Source of the DNA: Candidatus Poribacteria bacterium
Lineage (GTDB): Bacteria > Poribacteria > WGA-4E > WGA-3G
Assembly (NCBI GenBank): GCA_965208735.1
Contig: CBDBPM010000002.1
Location: 3,206,962 to 3,270,961, forward strand
Length of the DNA: 64,000 nucleotides
Direction of reading: 5' to 3'
The notes under the pieces were generated by a model. It did no database searches, was not told the DNA's origin, and worked only from the letters and a program-made list of their open reading frames with translations. Position numbers and translations under genes: made by a program. Position 1 is the first letter of the stretch, and every line of letters starts with the position of its first letter. Positions 39,312 through 48,831 of this stretch are shown piece after piece.

Positions 39312-40547
39312 ATGAATCTTTATAAATCAACGCAGATAAGTGTGGTCATCCTGTTAGTCCTCCAAATCGCCATCTTCAGCGGTTGCGATCAGTACGAGGA
39401 ATTCACCAATGACCCACCTGAAATCACCAACCTCACTGTTCCAGTGGAGGTCGAATACGGTGAAACCGTTCAACTCCGAATTAGGGCTTTTGATGCGGAT
39501 AACGACGATCTAACCTATATATGGGATGTTTCCGAAGGCACATTGGTGAGCGACACGGGTCCCGAAGTTCAGTGGACTGCCCCAGAATCATCGGAAAAAA
39601 TGGTGCCATCGAAAGTCGTAACCGTTAATGTCTATGTCCGAGACGGTAGCGAGAAAGATGCCTCCAAAACAGCAACGATCCTCGTCTACTCCAAACCCTA
39701 CAGAATCGCCGAGACACTCAGCGGCACCTATACGCTCGTTTCCAAAAGTGTTCACGGCGACCCTGTCCAAGTGACAGGTGCCCTGCGCCTCACGCCCACA
39801 ACGTTCACCCAGGAGTTCCAGGAGGTTTTAGAAGGCGAAGCACAATCCCTGAAACAGTTCGTCACCGGTTCCTACAAACTCATCAGGCCGTTTGCCCAAA
39901 GCAGCGGGACAATCCACTGGTTCACGCATGGAAACCCCAGGCCTTCTGTAGGTACATATACTTGGGATGGACAATTCTTGGCTTTAGTCTTTCGCGCCGA
40001 TGCTACGCAGTATATCTACAACCGTGCAGGCCCGGACCCCGAAGTTGTCGAAACCGATGATGCCGAGCCAGAACCGATTGATCCCGAACCCATTGAAGAA
40101 GATATCGAACCGGAACCGATTGATCCCGAACCCATTGAAGAAGATGTCGAACCGGAACCGATTGATCCCGAACCCATTGAAGAACTCGAAGATGAGGTTA
40201 ACCCGGATCCGGTGAATACCGATGGGAAACCCGTTGTCATTACCGATGCAACGTTCAAAACCGAGGTGTTGGATGCTGAATTGCCGGTTGTGCTTGAATT
40301 TGAAGCCGATTGGTGTCCGTTCTGCAGACAGATGAAGCCAATCGTTGCGTCCGTCGCGTTGGAACACCGGAACACTTTCATCATTGGGAAGTTGGATATC
40401 GACGAAAACCGGCAGACGACAGAGAAATATAAAGTTAGGGGGATCCCAGCGTATATTGTATTCCGAAACGGTGCAGAGGTCGCAAGGTTCGCAGGCGCGA
40501 TGCCTAAACAAGTCTTTGAAAATAGAATCCTTGATGCACTCAAATAG
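39312..40547 (+). CDS. Lipoprotein: PKD/Ig-like and beta domains, acidic Pro-rich linker, C-terminal thioredoxin (WCPFC)
   Basis: Lipobox FSGC; three 39-bp EPEPIDPEPIEE repeats; F.ADWCPFCRQMKP...GIP...F.G. Confidence 0.9.
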   Translation: MNLYKSTQISVVILLVLQIAIFSGCDQYEEFTNDPPEITNLTVPVEVEYGETVQLRIRAFDADNDDLTYIWDVSEGTLVSDTGPEVQWTAPESSEKMVPSKVVTVNVYVRDGSEKDASKTATILVYSKPYRIAETLSGTYTLVSKSVHGDPVQVTGALRLTPTTFTQEFQEVLEGEAQSLKQFVTGSYKLIRPFAQSSGTIHWFTHGNPRPSVGTYTWDGQFLALVFRADATQYIYNRAGPDPEVVETDDAEPEPIDPEPIEEDIEPEPIDPEPIEEDVEPEPIDPEPIEELEDEVNPDPVNTDGKPVVITDATFKTEVLDAELPVVLEFEADWCPFCRQMKPIVASVALEHRNTFIIGKLDIDENRQTTEKYKVRGIPAYIVFRNGAEVARFAGAMPKQVFENRILDALK

Positions 40548-40582
40548 GTTTCATGTGGACATCAGGAAAAAGGAGATTGCCA

Positions 40583-42826
40583 ATGAAACGCATGCTATTT
40601 TCAATTTTGATCCCTATGTTTATGGTGCTGGGCGGCGTGTCCCACGGCCAGGGTTTGGGCATACAGCCATACGAACGTGAGAGGGTGCGCTTAATCTATT
40701 TCCGCCCAAGCGACCGTCCACATCGCCAAACTATTGACACAGAGTTGGACATCTTGATACGATGGTCACAGTACTTCTTCGCCGAACAGATGCAAAACTA
40801 CGGGAGAAAAACATTTGCTTTTGAAACCGATACTACCGGTCACGCGAAGGTCCACCATGTTACCGGAAAGTTCACAGATACCTATTATCACAGTGATACC
40901 TACGACAAAGTAGTGAACGAGGTTATGGAGCAGTTTGATACCTCAAGGGATGTCGTCCTCATCACCGTGGACGTGAGTAGCGAATTCATTAACAACGAAG
41001 GCACGTGTGGGATAGGCGGCGGCGGTTGGAAATCGCACGACAGCGAATTGTGGTGGCGAGATTTTGGCGGAACGGCTGTTATCCCTGCCTCCGGTGTCTG
41101 CATTAACCCGAGTATTACCGCGCATGAACTCGGACACGTCTTCGGATTAGAACACGATTTTCGCGACGATGCGTATCTCATGGCTTACGGCACGCAAGAA
41201 CGCTTATCGCAGTGTGCTGCGGAATGGTTGGACGCCCACCGGTTCTTCAACAACGATCCAGTGCAGCTCAATGATGCAGCGACGATGGATATGCATGCCT
41301 CGAACACTGCGACACCGGGGAATCTGAGTCTGCAATTTGAACTGACCGATACCGATGGCCTCCATCAGGCGCAGCTGATTGTCCCGGCAACTGCCGCGGA
41401 TCCTGCACAAGGCACGAAGCTCCATAGCTGCAAGTCACTGAAAGGTGAAAACCAGACTGTTGGATTCCTCACGACGGATTTAGCAGCCGAAGCTGGAAGC
41501 GAAGTAACGCTGCAAGTGATTGATGATAGGGGGGGTATTACCAAACAGACCTTCGCCCTTAAAATAGAAGGTAGAATCTCAAACCGGGCACCCATAGCCG
41601 TCGGCACAATTCCTGACCAAAATTTGACGCTCGGCGGCAGTGCTACGATGCTTAACATATCGCCTTACTTCAGCGATCCAGACGGTGATGTTTTAAGTTA
41701 TAAGGCTGAATCAAATAACACAAGGGTGGTAGCTGTGCGTTTGGCTGGAAGCCAAATAACAATCGCACCGAGGGGTATAGGTAGTACGAGCGTGGCGGTG
41801 ACGGCGAGCGATGGTAAATTGCTTGTCACGCAGCGCGTCTCAGTTCAGGTCGAGGGCGCGCCTGTCGCAGATGCCACAGATACCTTTGACGACCCTTTTG
41901 AAGGCACGGCACTGCAAAACCCGAATTGGCAGTGGCAAAATGAACCCGTGAATTGGGATGTCGGCGAAACACGAGACGGTTTCCTCCATATCAAGAGCGA
42001 AACCAACCGGAATCTCTGGGCATCAGATACCACGCATTTCTTGTATCAGGAGACCAGTGCCGACGCATTTGACGTCGAAACCCACTTCTTCACCAGATGG
42101 GATACATCTTCCGGTGTCAATGGACTGGTCGTGAAAAGTCCGGCGGACAATAACTGGGTGACAATAAAATTCTGGGCACGCGATGCTGTCTCGAAAGGAC
42201 AAATCCAGTATCAAACCAAGCAAAATGAGGGTGGAGACGGCTTGACAGATAATGCCGGGTTCACACCGACCTTTGGCAACACCGAACTCTTTTTCCGGCT
42301 CCGTAAACAAGGAAACACCTACACAGGATGGTATAAAACCCGCGAAGCGGACCCTTGGATAGAGATTGGCGTTACGAATTTTGCTTTGACACCGCCGCTA
42401 CACGTGGGCATTTATGCAGGAGTTACCGCGGGGGCAGGCACCTTAACGGTTGACTATGATTACTTCCGAAGCACAGTTGACACGGGTGTTCTCGCATCAC
42501 CGCTGCTCCATGTCGCTGCCATGGAGACACCAACGGAAACGACACTCTTGCCGAACTATCCGAACCCGTTCAACCCAGAGACATGGATACCGTATCAGTT
42601 ATCATCGCCATCGGATGTGACGGTGCATATCTATGCAGTAGATGGAAGTTTGGTACGCGTGTTATCATTAGGACATAAAACGACAGGCATCTATGAATCA
42701 CGCACCCGTGCTGCCTATTGGGACGGCAGAAACAACTTAGGTGAACCCGTCGCAAGCGGACTCTATTTCTACACACTCACCGCAGGCGAATTCACCGCAA
42801 CACGTAAAATGTTGATACGCAAATAG
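40583..42826 (+). CDS. Exported Zn-metallopeptidase with Ig-like, lectin-like and FlgD/T9SS-like C-terminal domains
   Basis: HELGHVFGLEH plus Met-turn; NRAP...FSDPDGD.L.Y; NYPNPFNP...RKMLIRK. Confidence 0.85.
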   Translation: MKRMLFSILIPMFMVLGGVSHGQGLGIQPYERERVRLIYFRPSDRPHRQTIDTELDILIRWSQYFFAEQMQNYGRKTFAFETDTTGHAKVHHVTGKFTDTYYHSDTYDKVVNEVMEQFDTSRDVVLITVDVSSEFINNEGTCGIGGGGWKSHDSELWWRDFGGTAVIPASGVCINPSITAHELGHVFGLEHDFRDDAYLMAYGTQERLSQCAAEWLDAHRFFNNDPVQLNDAATMDMHASNTATPGNLSLQFELTDTDGLHQAQLIVPATAADPAQGTKLHSCKSLKGENQTVGFLTTDLAAEAGSEVTLQVIDDRGGITKQTFALKIEGRISNRAPIAVGTIPDQNLTLGGSATMLNISPYFSDPDGDVLSYKAESNNTRVVAVRLAGSQITIAPRGIGSTSVAVTASDGKLLVTQRVSVQVEGAPVADATDTFDDPFEGTALQNPNWQWQNEPVNWDVGETRDGFLHIKSETNRNLWASDTTHFLYQETSADAFDVETHFFTRWDTSSGVNGLVVKSPADNNWVTIKFWARDAVSKGQIQYQTKQNEGGDGLTDNAGFTPTFGNTELFFRLRKQGNTYTGWYKTREADPWIEIGVTNFALTPPLHVGIYAGVTAGAGTLTVDYDYFRSTVDTGVLASPLLHVAAMETPTETTLLPNYPNPFNPETWIPYQLSSPSDVTVHIYAVDGSLVRVLSLGHKTTGIYESRTRAAYWDGRNNLGEPVASGLYFYTLTAGEFTATRKMLIRK

Positions 42827-42953: not shown

Positions 42954-45467
42954 ATGAAAACGAGAAAAAGACTACTTTTCATCCTAACACTGCTCATCCT
43001 CTCAACAACCGTTCTATCAACAGGCTTCACCCAAGACTACACAACCTGGAGCCTCCCCGAAGGCGCCAAAGCACGGCTCGGCAAAGGTAACATAAACGAG
43101 ATCGCATATTCACCGGATGGAGCACTACTTGCCGTCGCAAGCTCCATCGGTGTATGGCTTTACGACACGAACACCTATCAAGAGATCAACTTGCTCACGG
43201 GACATACGAGTTCGGTTCTTAGCGTCGCGTTCAGTCCTGATGGCACCACCCTCGCAAGTGGTAGTAGGGACAGGACTATCCGTTTGTGGGATGTCGCTAC
43301 AGGCACCCTGAAAAACACACTCACGGGACATACGGACTGGGTTTTTAGCGTAGCGTTCAGCCCGGATGGCACCACCCTCGCAAGTGGGAGTAGGGACACC
43401 ACGATAGACTTGTGGGATGTCGCTACAGGCACGTTGAAAAACACACTCACGGGACATACGAGTTCGGTTAGTAGCGTCGCGTTCAGTCCTGATGGCACCA
43501 CCCTCGCAAGTGGGAGTAGGGACGACCCCGTTGTCAGATTGTGGGATGTCGCTACAGGCACGTTGAAAAACACACTCACGGGACATACGAGTTCGGTTAG
43601 TAGCGTCGCGTTCAGTCCCGATGGCACCACCCTCGCAAGTGGGAGTAGGGACGGCATCCGTTTGTGGGATGTGGATACTGGCACAACTAAACACACGCTC
43701 ACTGGACATACGAGTTCGGTTCTTAGCGTCGCGTTCAGTCCCGATGGAAACACTATCGCAAGTGGGAGTGGGGACGGCATCCGTTTGTGGGATGTGGATA
43801 CTGGCACCCTGAAAAACACATTCACGGGACATACGAGGACGGTTTATAGCGTCGCGTTCAGTCCCGATGGAAACACTATCGCAAGTGGTAGTGGGGACAG
43901 GACTATCCGTTTGTGGGATGTCGCTACAGGCACCCTGAAAAACACACTCACGGGACATACGAATAGTGTTAGTAGCGTCGCGTTCAGTCCCGATGGTACC
44001 ACACTCGCAAGTGGGAGTGGGGACACCACGATAGACTTGTGGGATGTCGATACTGGCACCTTGAAAAATACACTCACAGGACATAGGGGTTCGGTTAATA
44101 GCGTAGCATTCAGCCCCGATGGCAACACACTCGCAAGTGGAGGTTGGGAAAACACCATCCGCTTTTGGGATGTCGCTACAGGCACCCTGAAAAACACACT
44201 CACGGGACATACGAATAGTGTTAGTAGCGTCGCGTTCAGCCCCGATGGAAAAACACTCGCAAGTGGCGGCGGACGGGACGACGGCACCATCCGTTTGTGG
44301 GATGTCGCTACAGGCACGTTGAAAAACACACTCACGGGACATACGAATAGTGTTAATAGCGTAGCGTTCAGCCCAGACGGAAACACCCTCGCAAGTGGGA
44401 GTTTTGACAATACCATCCGCTTTTGGGATGTTGAGACAGGCACGTTGAAAAACACACTCACGGGACATACGGACTGGGTTAATAGCGTCGCGTTCAGCCC
44501 GGATGGCACCACCCTCGCAAGTGGCGGCGGACGGGACGACGGCACCGTCGGCTTGTGGGATGTTGAGACAGGCACCCTGAAAAACACACGCACGGGACAT
44601 ACGGACAGGGTTCGTAGCGTAGCGTTCAGCCCCGATGGAAACACTATCGCAACTGGTAGTTGGAACGACAACGACCCCGTTGTCAGATTGTGGGATGTTG
44701 AGACAGGCACCCTGAAAAACACACGCACGGGACATACGGACAGGGTTCGTAGCGTAGCGTTCAGCCCCGATGGAAACACTATCGCAACTGGTAGTTGGAA
44801 CGACAACGACCCCGTTGTCAGATTGTGGGATGTCGCACCCACAGAGCCACCGCCGCTCGCAGCCGATGTTAACGGAGACGGCACCGTCAACATCCAAGAC
44901 CTCGTACAAGTCGCCGCAAACTTCGGCGAAACCGGCGAAAACCCGGCAGATGTCAACGGCGATGGTCAAGTGAACATCCAAGACCTCGTCGCTGTCGCAG
45001 CCGCATTCGGTGAAGCAGCAGCCGCACCCGCCGCACAGTCCGCAGCCCTCGAACACCTCACCGCTACCGAAGTCGAACGCTGGCTACACGCAGCACAACA
45101 CGCAAACCGCACCGATCCGACTTTCCAACGCGGTGTTGAAGTCCTAAAACACCTACTCGCACTCTTGACACCCAAAGAGACGGTGTTGCTACCCAACTAC
45201 CCGAACCCGTTTAACCCAGAGACATGGATACCGTATCAGTTGGCAAATCCAGCAGAGGTCACCCTCCGTATCTATGCGGTAGACGGAAGTTTGGTACGTA
45301 TGCTATCATTAGGACATAAAACGATAGGCATCTATCAGACCCGCGCGCTTGCGGCGTATTGGGACGGCAGAAACGCAGTCGGTGAACCCGTCGCAAGCGG
45401 ACTCTATTTCTACACACTCACCGCAGGCGAATTCACCGCAACACGAAAAATGTTGATACGAAAGTAA
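42954..45467 (+). CDS. Exported WD40 protein, 13 near-identical repeats plus one divergent repeat, dockerin-like pair and C-terminal domain
   Basis: Repeats conserved at DNA level; last two are exact 135-bp copies (44553, 44688). Confidence 0.93.
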   Translation: MKTRKRLLFILTLLILSTTVLSTGFTQDYTTWSLPEGAKARLGKGNINEIAYSPDGALLAVASSIGVWLYDTNTYQEINLLTGHTSSVLSVAFSPDGTTLASGSRDRTIRLWDVATGTLKNTLTGHTDWVFSVAFSPDGTTLASGSRDTTIDLWDVATGTLKNTLTGHTSSVSSVAFSPDGTTLASGSRDDPVVRLWDVATGTLKNTLTGHTSSVSSVAFSPDGTTLASGSRDGIRLWDVDTGTTKHTLTGHTSSVLSVAFSPDGNTIASGSGDGIRLWDVDTGTLKNTFTGHTRTVYSVAFSPDGNTIASGSGDRTIRLWDVATGTLKNTLTGHTNSVSSVAFSPDGTTLASGSGDTTIDLWDVDTGTLKNTLTGHRGSVNSVAFSPDGNTLASGGWENTIRFWDVATGTLKNTLTGHTNSVSSVAFSPDGKTLASGGGRDDGTIRLWDVATGTLKNTLTGHTNSVNSVAFSPDGNTLASGSFDNTIRFWDVETGTLKNTLTGHTDWVNSVAFSPDGTTLASGGGRDDGTVGLWDVETGTLKNTRTGHTDRVRSVAFSPDGNTIATGSWNDNDPVVRLWDVETGTLKNTRTGHTDRVRSVAFSPDGNTIATGSWNDNDPVVRLWDVAPTEPPPLAADVNGDGTVNIQDLVQVAANFGETGENPADVNGDGQVNIQDLVAVAAAFGEAAAAPAAQSAALEHLTATEVERWLHAAQHANRTDPTFQRGVEVLKHLLALLTPKETVLLPNYPNPFNPETWIPYQLANPAEVTLRIYAVDGSLVRMLSLGHKTIGIYQTRALAAYWDGRNAVGEPVASGLYFYTLTAGEFTATRKMLIRK

Positions 45468-45658: not shown

Positions 45659-46378
45659 ATGAATCTCTTTAAGTTAACCGAGACAGGTTTGGTTGTTCTG
45701 TTCATTCTCCAAGCCGTTATCTTAACTGGATGCGATCAATACGAAGAACTTACCAACGACCCACCTGAAATAACCACTTTCACCATCCCGAATGAAGTCG
45801 AATACGGTGAAACCGTCACATTTAAAGCAAGAGTCTTTGACCCGGAAGACAATCCTTTGACCTATGCGTGGGAGGTATCCGATGGCGTTTTGGAGGGCGA
45901 AGCGGGCCCCCAAGTCCAGTGGACTGCCCCCGAACTGCCGTCGGAGGAGATCGTCCCGCCGAAAGTCGTAACCGTCTACCTCTACGTACGCGATGGCGGC
46001 GAAGAAGATGTCCACAAAATGGCAACCATTACTGTTTTCTCCAAACCCTATAAAATTGCGCAATTCTTCACCAGCACCTATACGCTCATCTCCAAACAGG
46101 TCAGGGGCGACCCGGTCGAAGAAACGAGTACCCTGCGGCTCACACCGACGACCTTTACACGCGAAATCAAGTCAAACCCTGAAGCCGAGGTACAAACACC
46201 GACGCAGTTCATCACTGGCTCCTATAGATTCATTGAACCATTTGATAATAGCAGTGGGACAATCCACTGGTTCCCTACGGGCAGCCTGAACCCCGAAATC
46301 AGTACGTATACGTGGGACGGTAGACTCTTCGTCATCTTCTACCCCGAAACCGCCACCAGTTATATCTATGAAAAGTAA
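45659..46378 (+). CDS. Lipoprotein, paralog of the N-terminal part of 39312..40547
   Basis: GCDQYEE.TNDPPEIT...EVEYGETV...YVRDG.E.D...LRLTPTTFT...YTWDG shared. Confidence 0.88.
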   Translation: MNLFKLTETGLVVLFILQAVILTGCDQYEELTNDPPEITTFTIPNEVEYGETVTFKARVFDPEDNPLTYAWEVSDGVLEGEAGPQVQWTAPELPSEEIVPPKVVTVYLYVRDGGEEDVHKMATITVFSKPYKIAQFFTSTYTLISKQVRGDPVEETSTLRLTPTTFTREIKSNPEAEVQTPTQFITGSYRFIEPFDNSSGTIHWFPTGSLNPEISTYTWDGRLFVIFYPETATSYIYEK

Positions 46379-46621
46379 CGCTTCGTCCAGTTTCAAATCA
46401 TACAACAAGTTGCAGGCGGGGTTTGCAACCCCGCCGTATCCAAGTGCCTCCAGGTCCGGTAGGTGCGGTTTGCAACCGCACCGGATTCTACGCGGAAACT
46501 TTCCTTCCAATCCTTCGCATTTTCCACACTTGCACTCCTACATCAAACTATGATACAATACTAATTACAGCAAAATTGAATGTTATTGAATGTTTCCGTT
46601 AGATCGTTAAGGAATCACCTT

Positions 46622-47101
46622 ATGCACACCTTACGCAAAACTTGCACTTTACTGATCATCGGTTTAGTCGCAATCTACACTGCCGGCTGCGGTGAAAATG
46701 TTGAACAGGAGATAGACCCCGTAGTGTTTGACACAGAACCCGCCCGCGAAGAGCCTTCTGAACCCATCGCGACCGATGGGAAGCCGATCACAGTCACCGA
46801 TGCGACCTTTGAAGCCGTTGTATTGGGTGCTGAATTGCCCGTCGTGCTTGAACTCGGCGCGGAATGGTGAGGCTTTTGCCGGTCAATGCGACCCACCGTT
46901 GATGCAGTTGCATCAGAACATCGTGAAACCTTTATCATCGCGAAATTGGATATTGATAAGAACCGTGAGACCGCGGGAGAGTACGGCGGACAAGGGATTC
47001 CGGCTTACATTGTCTTCCGTGATGGCGAAGTCGTAGGAAAATTTGTAGGCGCGATGCCCCAAGGAGAGTTTGTCCAGAAAATTTTCGATATACTCAAATA
47101 A
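46622..47101 (+). CDS. Selenocysteine-containing lipoprotein thioredoxin (UxxC), read through TGA 46868-46870
   Basis: ORFs 46580..46870 and 46886..47101 are in one frame; GAEW-TGA-GFCRSMRP aligns with EADWCPFCRQMKP of the paralog; lipobox TAGC; hairpins downstream of the TGA. Confidence 0.82.
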
Positions 47102-47373
47102 CGCCAGTTTGATTAATCATTCCGGCTGTGTTGCGGTTCTTTTCGCATCACAGAGACATCAATTGTAGCACAAACTTCATAGTTTGTGGCGTATATGACA
47201 TCCATTAACAGTCGACGCGACATAAGTCCAACATTTATCAAACTCACGTTCAAATAGTTATCAGTTTGCCTTGCAGTGAGAGTTAAAGAGAGATTTGATT
47301 AACCAGAGCATCTCTTAACTGAGTACTGACAACTGTTAACCGAAAGGTTTTCGCAGAAAACCGTACCAATACT

Positions 47374-48831
47374 ATGGCACAACAAAACATAACACTCCAG
47401 AAAATCGACGAATACCGCTGGCGTATCCCGAAAAGTTACATGAAAGGCATGCGCGTGGACGGCATCGTCTATGCCAACGAGAAACTCCTCGAACAGACAA
47501 ATAGCGGCGAGGCGTTGCAGCAGGTCGCAAACGTAGCGCACCTTCCTGGCATTGTCAAACACTCGCTCGCAATGCCCGATTTACATTGGGGATACGGGTT
47601 CGTCATCGGTGGTGTCGCGGCGACCGATCCGAAGGCAGATGGTGTCGTCTCTCCCGGCGGCATCGGATACGACATCAATTGCGGAGTCCGCCTCATCCGG
47701 ACGAACCTCGATGTCTCGCAACTTGACGGTAAGCGGAAAGCACTCATCGCTAAGTTGTTCGAGAACGTTCCGTGCGGTGTCGGCTCCAGCGGCAAAATTC
47801 GGCTCACCGTCCAAGAAGAACGGCGGATGTTGGAAAAGGGCGCGCAGTGGTCAATTGATCGGGAATACGGACACCCTAACGACCTCAACTTCACCGAGGC
47901 GACCGGTTTCCTCCAAAATGCAAACGCCGACGCTGCAAGCCAACGCGCCTTAGAACGTGGCAAAAACCAACTCGGCACTCTCGGTTCCGGCAACCATTTC
48001 CTTGAAGTCCAAGCCGTTGATCGTATCTTCTACCGAGAAGCCGCCGATGCGATGGGGTTAAGCGAAGGCAATATCTGTGTCATGATTCATACCGGTTCAC
48101 GCGGCTTCGGTTATCAAATTTGCGATGAACACGTCAAGAGTTGGGTCAAAGTCGCCGAAAGATACGGCATCAGGCTTCCCGACCGGCAGCTTGCCTCCGC
48201 ACCGATTAACTCACCGGAGGGACAGGACTACATCACCGCGATGGCGTGTAGTGCCAATTATGCGTGGAACAATCGGCAATGTATTATGCACCTCGTCCGG
48301 CAGACCTTCATGCAGTTTTTTGGTGCCACAGAAGACGAACTCGGCTTAGAGCTCGTCTACGATGTCGCACATAACATCGGAAAATTCGAGAAACACACCG
48401 TTGACGGCAAAGAACGTGAACTCTTTATTCACCGCAAAGGTGCGACCCGTGCGTTTCCGGCAGGACATCCAGAGATTCCTGACAAATACCAGAAGGTCGG
48501 GCAACCTGTGCTGATTCCGGGTGATATGGGAACCGCCTCTTACGTGCTTGTCGGCAATCCGGGCGCGATGGCGGAGACATGGGGCACCACCTGCCACGGT
48601 GCGGGGAGAGTCCTCTCACGGCGGAAGGCGATCGCCTTAACGAAAGGACGTTCTATCCAAAAGGATTTAGAGGCGCAAGGCATCTTCGTCCGTGCGGAAG
48701 GCAGACGTACCCTCCAAGAAGAGGTACCTGAAGCTTACAAGGATGTCGATGAAGTCGTCCGTGTCGTTGACAAAGCCGGACTTTCACGGCGCGTCGCACG
48801 TCTCCGTCCCATCGGAGTCGTGAAGGGTTAA
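47374..48831 (+). CDS. rtcB: RNA ligase RtcB
   Basis: MPDLHWGYGF.IGGV, GYDINCGVR, LGTLGSGNHFLEVQ, IHTGSRG, HRKGATRA, HGAGR. Confidence 0.97.
   Translation: MAQQNITLQKIDEYRWRIPKSYMKGMRVDGIVYANEKLLEQTNSGEALQQVANVAHLPGIVKHSLAMPDLHWGYGFVIGGVAATDPKADGVVSPGGIGYDINCGVRLIRTNLDVSQLDGKRKALIAKLFENVPCGVGSSGKIRLTVQEERRMLEKGAQWSIDREYGHPNDLNFTEATGFLQNANADAASQRALERGKNQLGTLGSGNHFLEVQAVDRIFYREAADAMGLSEGNICVMIHTGSRGFGYQICDEHVKSWVKVAERYGIRLPDRQLASAPINSPEGQDYITAMACSANYAWNNRQCIMHLVRQTFMQFFGATEDELGLELVYDVAHNIGKFEKHTVDGKERELFIHRKGATRAFPAGHPEIPDKYQKVGQPVLIPGDMGTASYVLVGNPGAMAETWGTTCHGAGRVLSRRKAIALTKGRSIQKDLEAQGIFVRAEGRRTLQEEVPEAYKDVDEVVRVVDKAGLSRRVARLRPIGVVKG

Follow-up and report, generated by a model that had tools for sequence, protein, structure and literature searches.

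In a 64,000-nucleotide stretch of a Candidatus Poribacteria genome (hereafter the window; the host assembly has 6.2 Mb in two contigs), an apparently broken gene at positions 46622 to 47101 of the forward strand is almost certainly, as judged by comparison of sequences, undamaged and coding for a thioredoxin, probably tethered to a membrane, whose active site has selenocysteine (Sec, U). With genetic code table 11, two open reading frames (ORFs) are predicted at this place, 46580..46870 (96 aa) and 46886..47101 (71 aa), which are in a common frame. When TGA is translated as U, a single product of 159 residues is obtained from the ATG at 46622 to a TAA stop codon; the only in-frame TGA encodes residue 83, within a W-U-G-F-C motif that aligns with W-C-P-F-C in a cysteine paralogue ending at 40547. 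The Met at 46622 was taken as the start because several orthologue frames open only a few codons before the aligned Met. A preliminary description of this DNA had reported one frame shared by the two ORFs, a single TGA at 46868-46870 at the position of the nucleophilic cysteine (with the same W-U-G-F-C/W-C-P-F-C alignment) and a downstream half devoid of other lesions, and had proposed a Sec-thioredoxin and not a pseudogene; these claims hold, with all their coordinates, and the last of them agrees with the complete Sec machinery and with the TGA of all 16 other orthologues described below. The features of the gene are the following:

46609..46613, forward strand: Shine-Dalgarno-like AAGGA, 8 nt 5' of the start codon (read from the sequence)
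46622..47101, forward strand: complete coding sequence (CDS) of the predicted Sec-thioredoxin lipoprotein precursor, 159 residues (translation with TGA as U)
46622..46690, forward strand: lipoprotein-type signal peptide (residues 1-22, basic n-region with R5 and K6, hydrophobic core), the range including Cys23
46688-46690, forward strand: codon of Cys23, at the end of the lipobox T-A-G-C (residues 20-23)
46691..46786, forward strand: acidic, Pro-rich linker (residues 24-55), with indels and low conservation across orthologues
46787..47083, forward strand: thioredoxin domain, PF00085 (residues 56-154)
46868..46870, forward strand: UGA putatively read as selenocysteine U83, N-terminal nucleophile of U-G-F-C, in the same column in 17/17 orthologues
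46877-46879, forward strand: codon of the resolving Cys86
47000..47002, forward strand: codon of Pro127 at the cis-Pro position (G-I-P-A-Y), invariant and aligned with I-P-T of 6zom_A
47099-47101, forward strand: TAA stop codon

Homologues were searched in six frames in 60 related genomes, of which 36 belong to the same genus and 24 to three other families of the order; about 150 matches were listed and counted by hand, and 33 further matches exist beyond those listed. Among the matches listed, full-length orthologues with exactly one TGA each are found in 16 of the 36 other genus genomes (55-91% identity). Including the window gene, all 17 orthologues are collinear and have W-U-G-[F/A/V]-C at the same column, so that no close relative has TGC or TGT at this codon. 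Cysteine homologues exist alongside them, as the preliminary description had suggested looking for: in 7 such sequences the residue opposite U83 is the first Cys of WCPFC, WCPPC or WCGPC. They comprise fusion proteins with WCPFC, a lipoprotein of genome G019 that has WCPPC and the same architecture, and a canonical WCGPC thioredoxin. Considering thioredoxins at large, 76 of the approximately 150 matches listed have one TGA, all of them in the genus, where each of the 36 other genomes has at least one such match among those listed; no TGA-bearing thioredoxin is among the matches listed for the 24 genomes of other families. The single-sequence observation taken alone is suggestive, and it goes well beyond chance because the TGA and a hairpin that follows it are conserved in 17/17 orthologues.

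Selection on the two halves was estimated from pairwise dN/dS ratios (Nei-Gojobori), using 30 codons before the TGA and 76 after it. For the upstream codons the ratio is 0.18 (136 pairs) and for the downstream codons 0.20 (134 of the 136 pairs usable), and this equally low value on both sides indicates purifying selection on each of the halves. A Cys-thioredoxin gene split by a private nonsense mutation, or by an error of sequencing or assembly, would account for the two ORFs obtained with table 11, all the more as an intact Cys paralogue lies 6 kb upstream. The probability of such a pseudogene is nonetheless negligible given that the TGA is kept at the same codon down to 55% identity, that the downstream half is as constrained as the upstream one, and that the catalytic position is TGA in two further paralogues as well. 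The TGA is also kept in contigs from two other studies, which span 46457-47169 with 0 differences (run X2) and 1 difference (run X4, G>A at 46624).

A maximum-likelihood tree was built from 36 thioredoxin domains (locus L050 contributed no row, and duplicates were removed). In it the 17 orthologues group together as a clade with Sec throughout (support 90/86), and the two other Sec paralogue types form a second one (support 93/88). A single origin of Sec in the family was rejected as a firm claim, the tree requiring 2 Sec/Cys changes; as the well-supported branches allow 1 change, no direction of change is claimed.

The preliminary description had made the selenoprotein dependent on a Sec machinery, and all four components are encoded in the host genome above curated cut-offs, so that an absence of machinery is ruled out: tRNA-Sec (78.1 bits for a cut-off of 47, also called by ARAGORN as tRNA-SeC with anticodon tca), selB (353.1 bits, about 40 nt from the tRNA-Sec gene), selA (601.8 bits) and selD (361.8 bits), which likewise has one internal TGA. 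No tRNA gene was found within the 64-kb window. The selD gene, at C2:5740493, is itself a selenoprotein gene (C-A-G-U-A-S context), and its hairpin GCUCC-AGG-GGAGC (5 bp, AGG loop, 17 nt 3' of the UGA) provides an internal example of a Sec insertion sequence (SECIS). As for the genetic code, TGA terminates 314 of the 1588 stop-to-stop frames of at least 400 codons in this genome, from which it follows that TGA is a working stop codon and that the code is not reassigned.

Bacterial SECIS (bSECIS) elements are described in the Figure 2 legend of PMC13188914 by a loop of 3-9 nt and a stem of 4-16 bp. The same source gives, in the portion concerned with the consensus, a G as the first or second nucleotide of the loop, the next one usually being G or U, a distance of 16-37 nt from UGA to loop and a minimum free energy (MFE) of at most -7.5 kcal/mol. 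Two hairpins follow the UGA of the window gene:

46880..46898, forward strand: hairpin 1, possible accessory structure, containing GGTC (46881-46884) and GACC (46890-46893)
46899..46916, forward strand: hairpin 2, proposed SECIS apical stem-loop, 7-bp stem (6 Watson-Crick pairs and U.G)
46900-46905 and 46910-46915, forward strand: core of hairpin 2, TGATGC and GCATCA
46906-46909, forward strand: loop of hairpin 2, AGUU, 35 nt 3' of the UGA, with G second and then U

Hairpin 2 fits the bSECIS consensus, the energy limit only narrowly: the helix by itself has -7.1 kcal/mol, inclusion of the flanks gives -7.9, and the extended form seen in the MFE fold has -8.9. It is present in 17/17 orthologues at the same spacing of 35 nt and with a loop AGUU or AGUC, its energy being -7.1 (n=12), -7.4 (n=1), -9.3 (n=1) or -4.9 kcal/mol (n=3), and 97.5% of its cells are paired in the 17-row alignment. 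In genome G028 a U-A pair is replaced by G-C, through an Asp-to-Glu change and a synonymous Ala change. Synonymous diversity is 0.136 at the 5 four-fold codons inside the hairpin and 0.433 at 16 such codons elsewhere in the domain (one-sided Mann-Whitney p 0.004, a value that overstates the evidence because the orthologue sequences are related). No comparable structure is present in the 7 Cys homologues, whose best hairpin has -4.9 kcal/mol and the rest -2.3 or weaker. In the genomic background, gapless hairpins fitting the consensus at dG <= -7.0 were found downstream of 29 of the 1153 TGAs sampled (2.5%).

Both hairpins had been proposed as SECIS candidates in the preliminary description. 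They are indeed found where they had been placed and the second fits the consensus, but the first does not: as primary SECIS, hairpin 1 was rejected, its loop having no G at either of its two initial positions in the window gene and its spacing (14-15 nt) being outside the 16-37 nt range. It has 76.5% of its cells paired, with 2 pairs showing compensatory changes, is not recovered in the RNAalifold consensus fold and is possibly an accessory structure. Rfam models gave no match at E <= 1 in 46300-47400; we know of no Rfam model of the bacterial SECIS, so that this null result says little.

If the UGA were decoded as an amino acid other than Sec, either through a genome-wide reassignment of TGA or through near-cognate read-through with Trp or Cys, the frame would be equally continuous. 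In favour of such decoding, the energy and spacing of hairpin 2 are at the edge of the bSECIS consensus and the case for Sec insertion is built on sequence evidence. It is nevertheless very unlikely: the use of TGA as a stop codon argues against a global reassignment, in three paralogue types the redox Cys position is the one place where the UGA occurs, no component of the Sec machinery is missing, and downstream of the UGA there is a conserved hairpin, with G-U in its loop, that the Cys homologues lack.

Several observations weigh against the selenoprotein reading. The bare helix of hairpin 2 just misses the limit of -7.5 kcal/mol, which is passed only with flanking or extended pairs, and in 3 of the 17 orthologues the outer pairs are gone, leaving 5 bp at -4.9 kcal/mol. 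Its covariation amounts to the single compensatory change in 1 of the 17 sequences, and the RNAalifold covariation term is -0.2 kcal/mol; the fold of a 63-nt segment is not exceptional (z -1.69, with 14 of 200 shuffles equally stable). The spacing of 35 nt is near the upper limit of the consensus, compared with 23 nt for the candidate loops of the two paralogue types and 17 nt in selD, and hairpin 1, which also has 2 compensatory changes, is a possible target of SelB as well. Apart from the hairpins, the A for G at 46624 in the contig of run X4 turns the proposed ATG start into ATA, in which case translation in that strain might start at the in-frame ATG at 46580 or at the ATA. Contigs from RNA libraries bridge the TGA and keep it (X15, 46648-46975; X16, 46684-47056); they come from related strains (16 and 21 differences) with possible DNA carry-over, and are a weak hint of transcription, which an RNA library does not prove. 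A scan of 46300-47400 gave no sigma-70-like promoter, together with one terminator-like site on the minus strand, a result of little informative value. Finally, the AlphaFold2 model (18 sequences; mean pLDDT 54.3, pTM 0.45) is too poor to confirm the fold.

The domain assignment comes from profile searches. PF00085 matches residues 56-154 with 77.5 bits (cut-off 23.5), and the match spans the TGA; W82, U83, C86 and P127 are invariant in the alignment. Were the UGA to act as a terminator, an 82-residue lipopeptide would be produced, and the downstream ORF of 71 codons (46886-47101) would be translated separately or never. Each piece begins with ATG and is listed as an ORF, as this explanation requires, but it is most improbable: the thioredoxin fold would be cut at the active site with neither half having a CxxC, a single Pfam domain crosses the TGA, purifying selection is equally strong before and after it, the two halves share a frame that no indel disturbs in any of the 17 species, and the stretch between the TGA and the ATG at 46886 is conserved as coding sequence (C-R-S-M).

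Within the selenoprotein reading, the protein is a member of the thioredoxin family and not the housekeeping TrxA, as its scores are under the cut-offs of the thioredoxin equivalogs of NCBIfam (TIGR01068, 75.7 vs 96.8; NF006898, 77.9 vs 138). No selenoprotein-specific NCBIfam model reached its cut-off, the only match being seleno_TsoB (17.6 bits vs 805), and rule-based annotation will therefore not rescue the gene. Gene callers will report the window gene, its 16 orthologues and the TGA-bearing paralogue types (at least two) as fragments or pseudogenes.

Export and lipidation were also part of the preliminary description. Lipidation of the window protein at Cys23 is plausible: G22-C23 is kept in 17/17 orthologues, with the lipobox pattern [T/I/A][A/I/M]-G-C, and both Lgt (PF01790, 140 bits) and LspA (PF01252, 140 bits) are encoded in the genome. 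The -3 position of a lipobox is usually Leu, Val or Ile. Here it is Thr in the window gene and T, I or A in the orthologues. The Thr is a point in favour of a genuine Sec-thioredoxin that would be unlipidated, either as a substrate of signal peptidase I or with an uncleaved anchor, a form that competes with the localisation part of the proposal only. We consider it unlikely, for the G-C that ends the hydrophobic core is constant while neighbouring residues vary, the two lipoprotein-processing enzymes are encoded, and the same arrangement is seen in the neighbouring gene 45659-46378 (L-T-G-C) and in the Cys paralogue (F-S-G-C). In one orthologue (locus L042, G011:C46) an extra Ig-like insert of about 85 residues is located between the lipobox and the thioredoxin domain, which makes the tether a site of domain gain.

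It is considered very probable that a single undamaged gene occupies the region and encodes an exported thioredoxin, with selenocysteine as the predicted catalytic nucleophile, and the following mechanism is proposed. While the ribosome sits on the UGA at 46868-46870, SelB with Sec-tRNA(Sec) would bind the hairpin at 46899-46916 (loop AGUU), and Sec would enter as residue 83 in place of termination. The N-terminal signal peptide would then export the precursor, Lgt would diacylglycerylate Cys23 and LspA would cut before it, leaving the thioredoxin domain on a linker of about 30 residues, tethered to a membrane surface outside the cytoplasm. In this location U83-G-F-C86 would cycle between the selenol/thiol and selenenylsulfide states, reducing or exchanging disulfides of extracytoplasmic substrates. 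Re-reduction of the tethered thioredoxin would probably occur via a DsbD-type membrane protein; elsewhere in the genome, a frame of 620 residues includes a transmembrane domain of DsbD type (174.9 bits). The recoding steps have a comparative basis, and we infer the localisation, the redox direction and the substrates.

Known Sec-thioredoxins are generally short cytoplasmic proteins, and the DsbA-like and TlpA/thiol-disulfide isomerase-like families usually act outside the cytoplasm. A thioredoxin of UxxC type (PF00085) is listed among the experimentally supported prokaryotic selenoproteins in the relevant section of PMC13188914, which credits Kim et al. 2015, and Sec-thioredoxins of Treponema denticola, Geobacter, Anaeromyxobacter and Carboxydothermus are found in a table of PMC1794560. 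UxxC thioredoxin is thus an already recognised selenoprotein family to which the window gene adds a member. The window protein resembles these proteins by its PF00085 domain, its UxxC motif with Sec as the N-terminal nucleophile, and the UGA followed by a hairpin inside the CDS; it differs from them by its lipoprotein-type signal peptide, its linker of about 30 residues and its U-G-F-C motif, and by the restriction of its clade, among the matches listed, to one Poribacteria genus.

Other thioredoxin-fold selenoproteins have been predicted, namely a DsbA-like form 1 (PF01323, UxxC), a thiol-disulfide isomerase-like form and a UGC-containing TlpA family (cd02966), as given in the corresponding part of PMC13188914. 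They are likewise thioredoxin-fold thiol:disulfide oxidoreductases with Sec-x-x-Cys, but belong to other sequence families, the domain of the window protein being closest to classical thioredoxin. No match of the window protein to DsbE or DsbD was obtained at E <= 0.001 among the extracytoplasmic reductase models scanned, and the Cys paralogue matches both far under their cut-offs (DsbE, 20.0 vs 123; DsbD, 19.9 vs 330). The best solved relatives are classical thioredoxins (6zom_A, E 1.8e-22; E. coli Trx1, about 6e-21; also 1skr_B, the range being E 1.8e-22 to 6e-21 over about 95 residues), with which the W-C/U-G-x-C motif, the position of the buried acidic residue and the cis-Pro loop align; these have WCGPC, whereas the window protein has WUGFC and carries in addition a signal for export and a tether. 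The same genome also encodes, as a distinct gene, a canonical WCGPC thioredoxin at C2:3859944-3860252.

In the literature searched, no thioredoxin report was found for selenocysteine in Poribacteria, although supplementary tables might list Poribacteria selenoproteins, and searches combining selenoprotein with lipobox or with dockerin gave no relevant report by title or abstract. Relative to this literature the occurrence in Poribacteria, the lipoprotein form and the dockerin-bearing sister forms described below are new. Sponge symbionts are enriched in selA and selB according to a passage of PMC5649159, and a Sec-containing variant of [NiFe] hydrogenase is known from the Poribacteria phylum according to one of PMC13582414. 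With the present gene, the Poribacteria selenoproteome would gain an extracytoplasmic thioredoxin.

Three further thioredoxin-domain genes of the same genome are related to the window gene, one with Cys and two with a catalytic TGA:

39312..40547: Cys paralogue, with a PKD/Ig-like lipoprotein N-domain, an acidic linker and a thioredoxin domain with W-C-P-F-C
C2:5368980-5369588 (L025:1237-1845): putative dockerin Sec-thioredoxin gene, F-U-I-Y-C, with Dockerin_1 and thioredoxin, secreted
C2:5369724-5371556 (L026:13-1845): putative dockerin Sec-thioredoxin gene, W-U-P-F-C, 610 residues, with Dockerin_1, Big_5, repeats and thioredoxin

The Cys paralogue has 57% identity with the window protein over the thioredoxin domain and the same lipobox-type N-terminus, and is located 5-19 kb from the Sec gene in the 8 genomes with coordinates that were compared. 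It differs by the Cys in place of Sec, by the lack of a SECIS-like hairpin (best -0.9 kcal/mol) and by the fusion of its thioredoxin to the N-domain, for which the Sec locus has a gene of its own (45659-46378). This PKD-like lipoprotein gene precedes the Sec-thioredoxin gene, and rtcB (47374-48831) follows it. As the Cys paralogue is a fusion of homologous parts, the locus looks like a duplication in which the thioredoxin part is now a separate Sec lipoprotein gene. The Sec-thioredoxin and its Cys paralogue, 6 kb apart, form a natural pair for assessing the contribution of selenium to an exported disulfide oxidoreductase.

The two dockerin genes, whose TGA-bearing catalytic motifs are at C2:5369340 (F-U-I-Y-C) and C2:5371311 (W-U-P-F-C), are adjacent and have TGA-bearing counterparts across the genus, with motifs T-U-P-F-C, W-U-P-S-C, G-U-P-S-C and similar. 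By inspection, candidate loops GGU and AGUU are placed 23 nt after the UGA in these paralogue types; since their hairpins in the window's genome are weak in the gapless scan, the paralogues are supported mainly by the conservation of the TGA. From the comparison of spacings (35 vs 23 nt), it would appear that the position of the SECIS element has shifted by four codons inside a single protein family.

We tentatively propose, with more doubt than confidence, that sponge-symbiotic Poribacteria may have a hitherto undescribed set of surface-displayed selenoenzymes, extending across the genus, with the window gene as one of its arms. Such a set would comprise three Sec types: the lipid-anchored form, a form with signal peptide, dockerin and thioredoxin, and a form with signal peptide, dockerin, Big_5/repeats and thioredoxin. 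The genome has 19 cohesin-domain matches above the Pfam cut-off (e.g. C2:2153373-2153741), and it is possible that cohesin proteins are the docking partners of the dockerin-bearing Sec-thioredoxins. If the proposal were true, the dockerin forms could plug into cohesin proteins, which would place highly nucleophilic selenol catalysts outside the cell, and disulfides in proteins of the host's matrix or of its defence could be reduced or reshuffled by these extracellular selenols.

Some further observations concern the surroundings of these genes. The 233-residue frame C2:2153100-2153741, which holds one of the cohesin matches, weakly resembles the window protein over residues 8-57 of the latter (35%), in its signal peptide and linker. 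In genome G019, which is without a Sec orthologue of the window gene, a Cys-form lipoprotein thioredoxin (locus L049, G019:C114; W-C-P-P-C, 45% identity) adjoins a gene of the URO-D family, and the same URO-D family gene precedes the dockerin Sec-thioredoxin in the window's genome. The PKD/Ig-like lipoprotein module is duplicated in the window (39312-about 40050 and 45659-46378), and between the two modules are a reprolysin-like metallopeptidase (40553-42826) and a 13-repeat WD40 protein (42954-45467). The latter two proteins have near-identical C-terminal ends (LLPNYPNPFNPETWIPYQL..., FlgD_ig-like), probably a domain for sorting or anchoring that both have in common. The Sec-thioredoxin gene is flanked by multi-copy elements. 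Upstream, at 46445-46490, is a palindromic unit some 35-45 nt long (GGTGCGGTTTGCAACCGCACC-like), for which the genome has about 87 BLAST matches; downstream, at 47100-47250, is a roughly 150-nt repeat, present in about 18-34 copies that are 91-93% identical. Both elements show a very high summed contig depth in sequencing runs.

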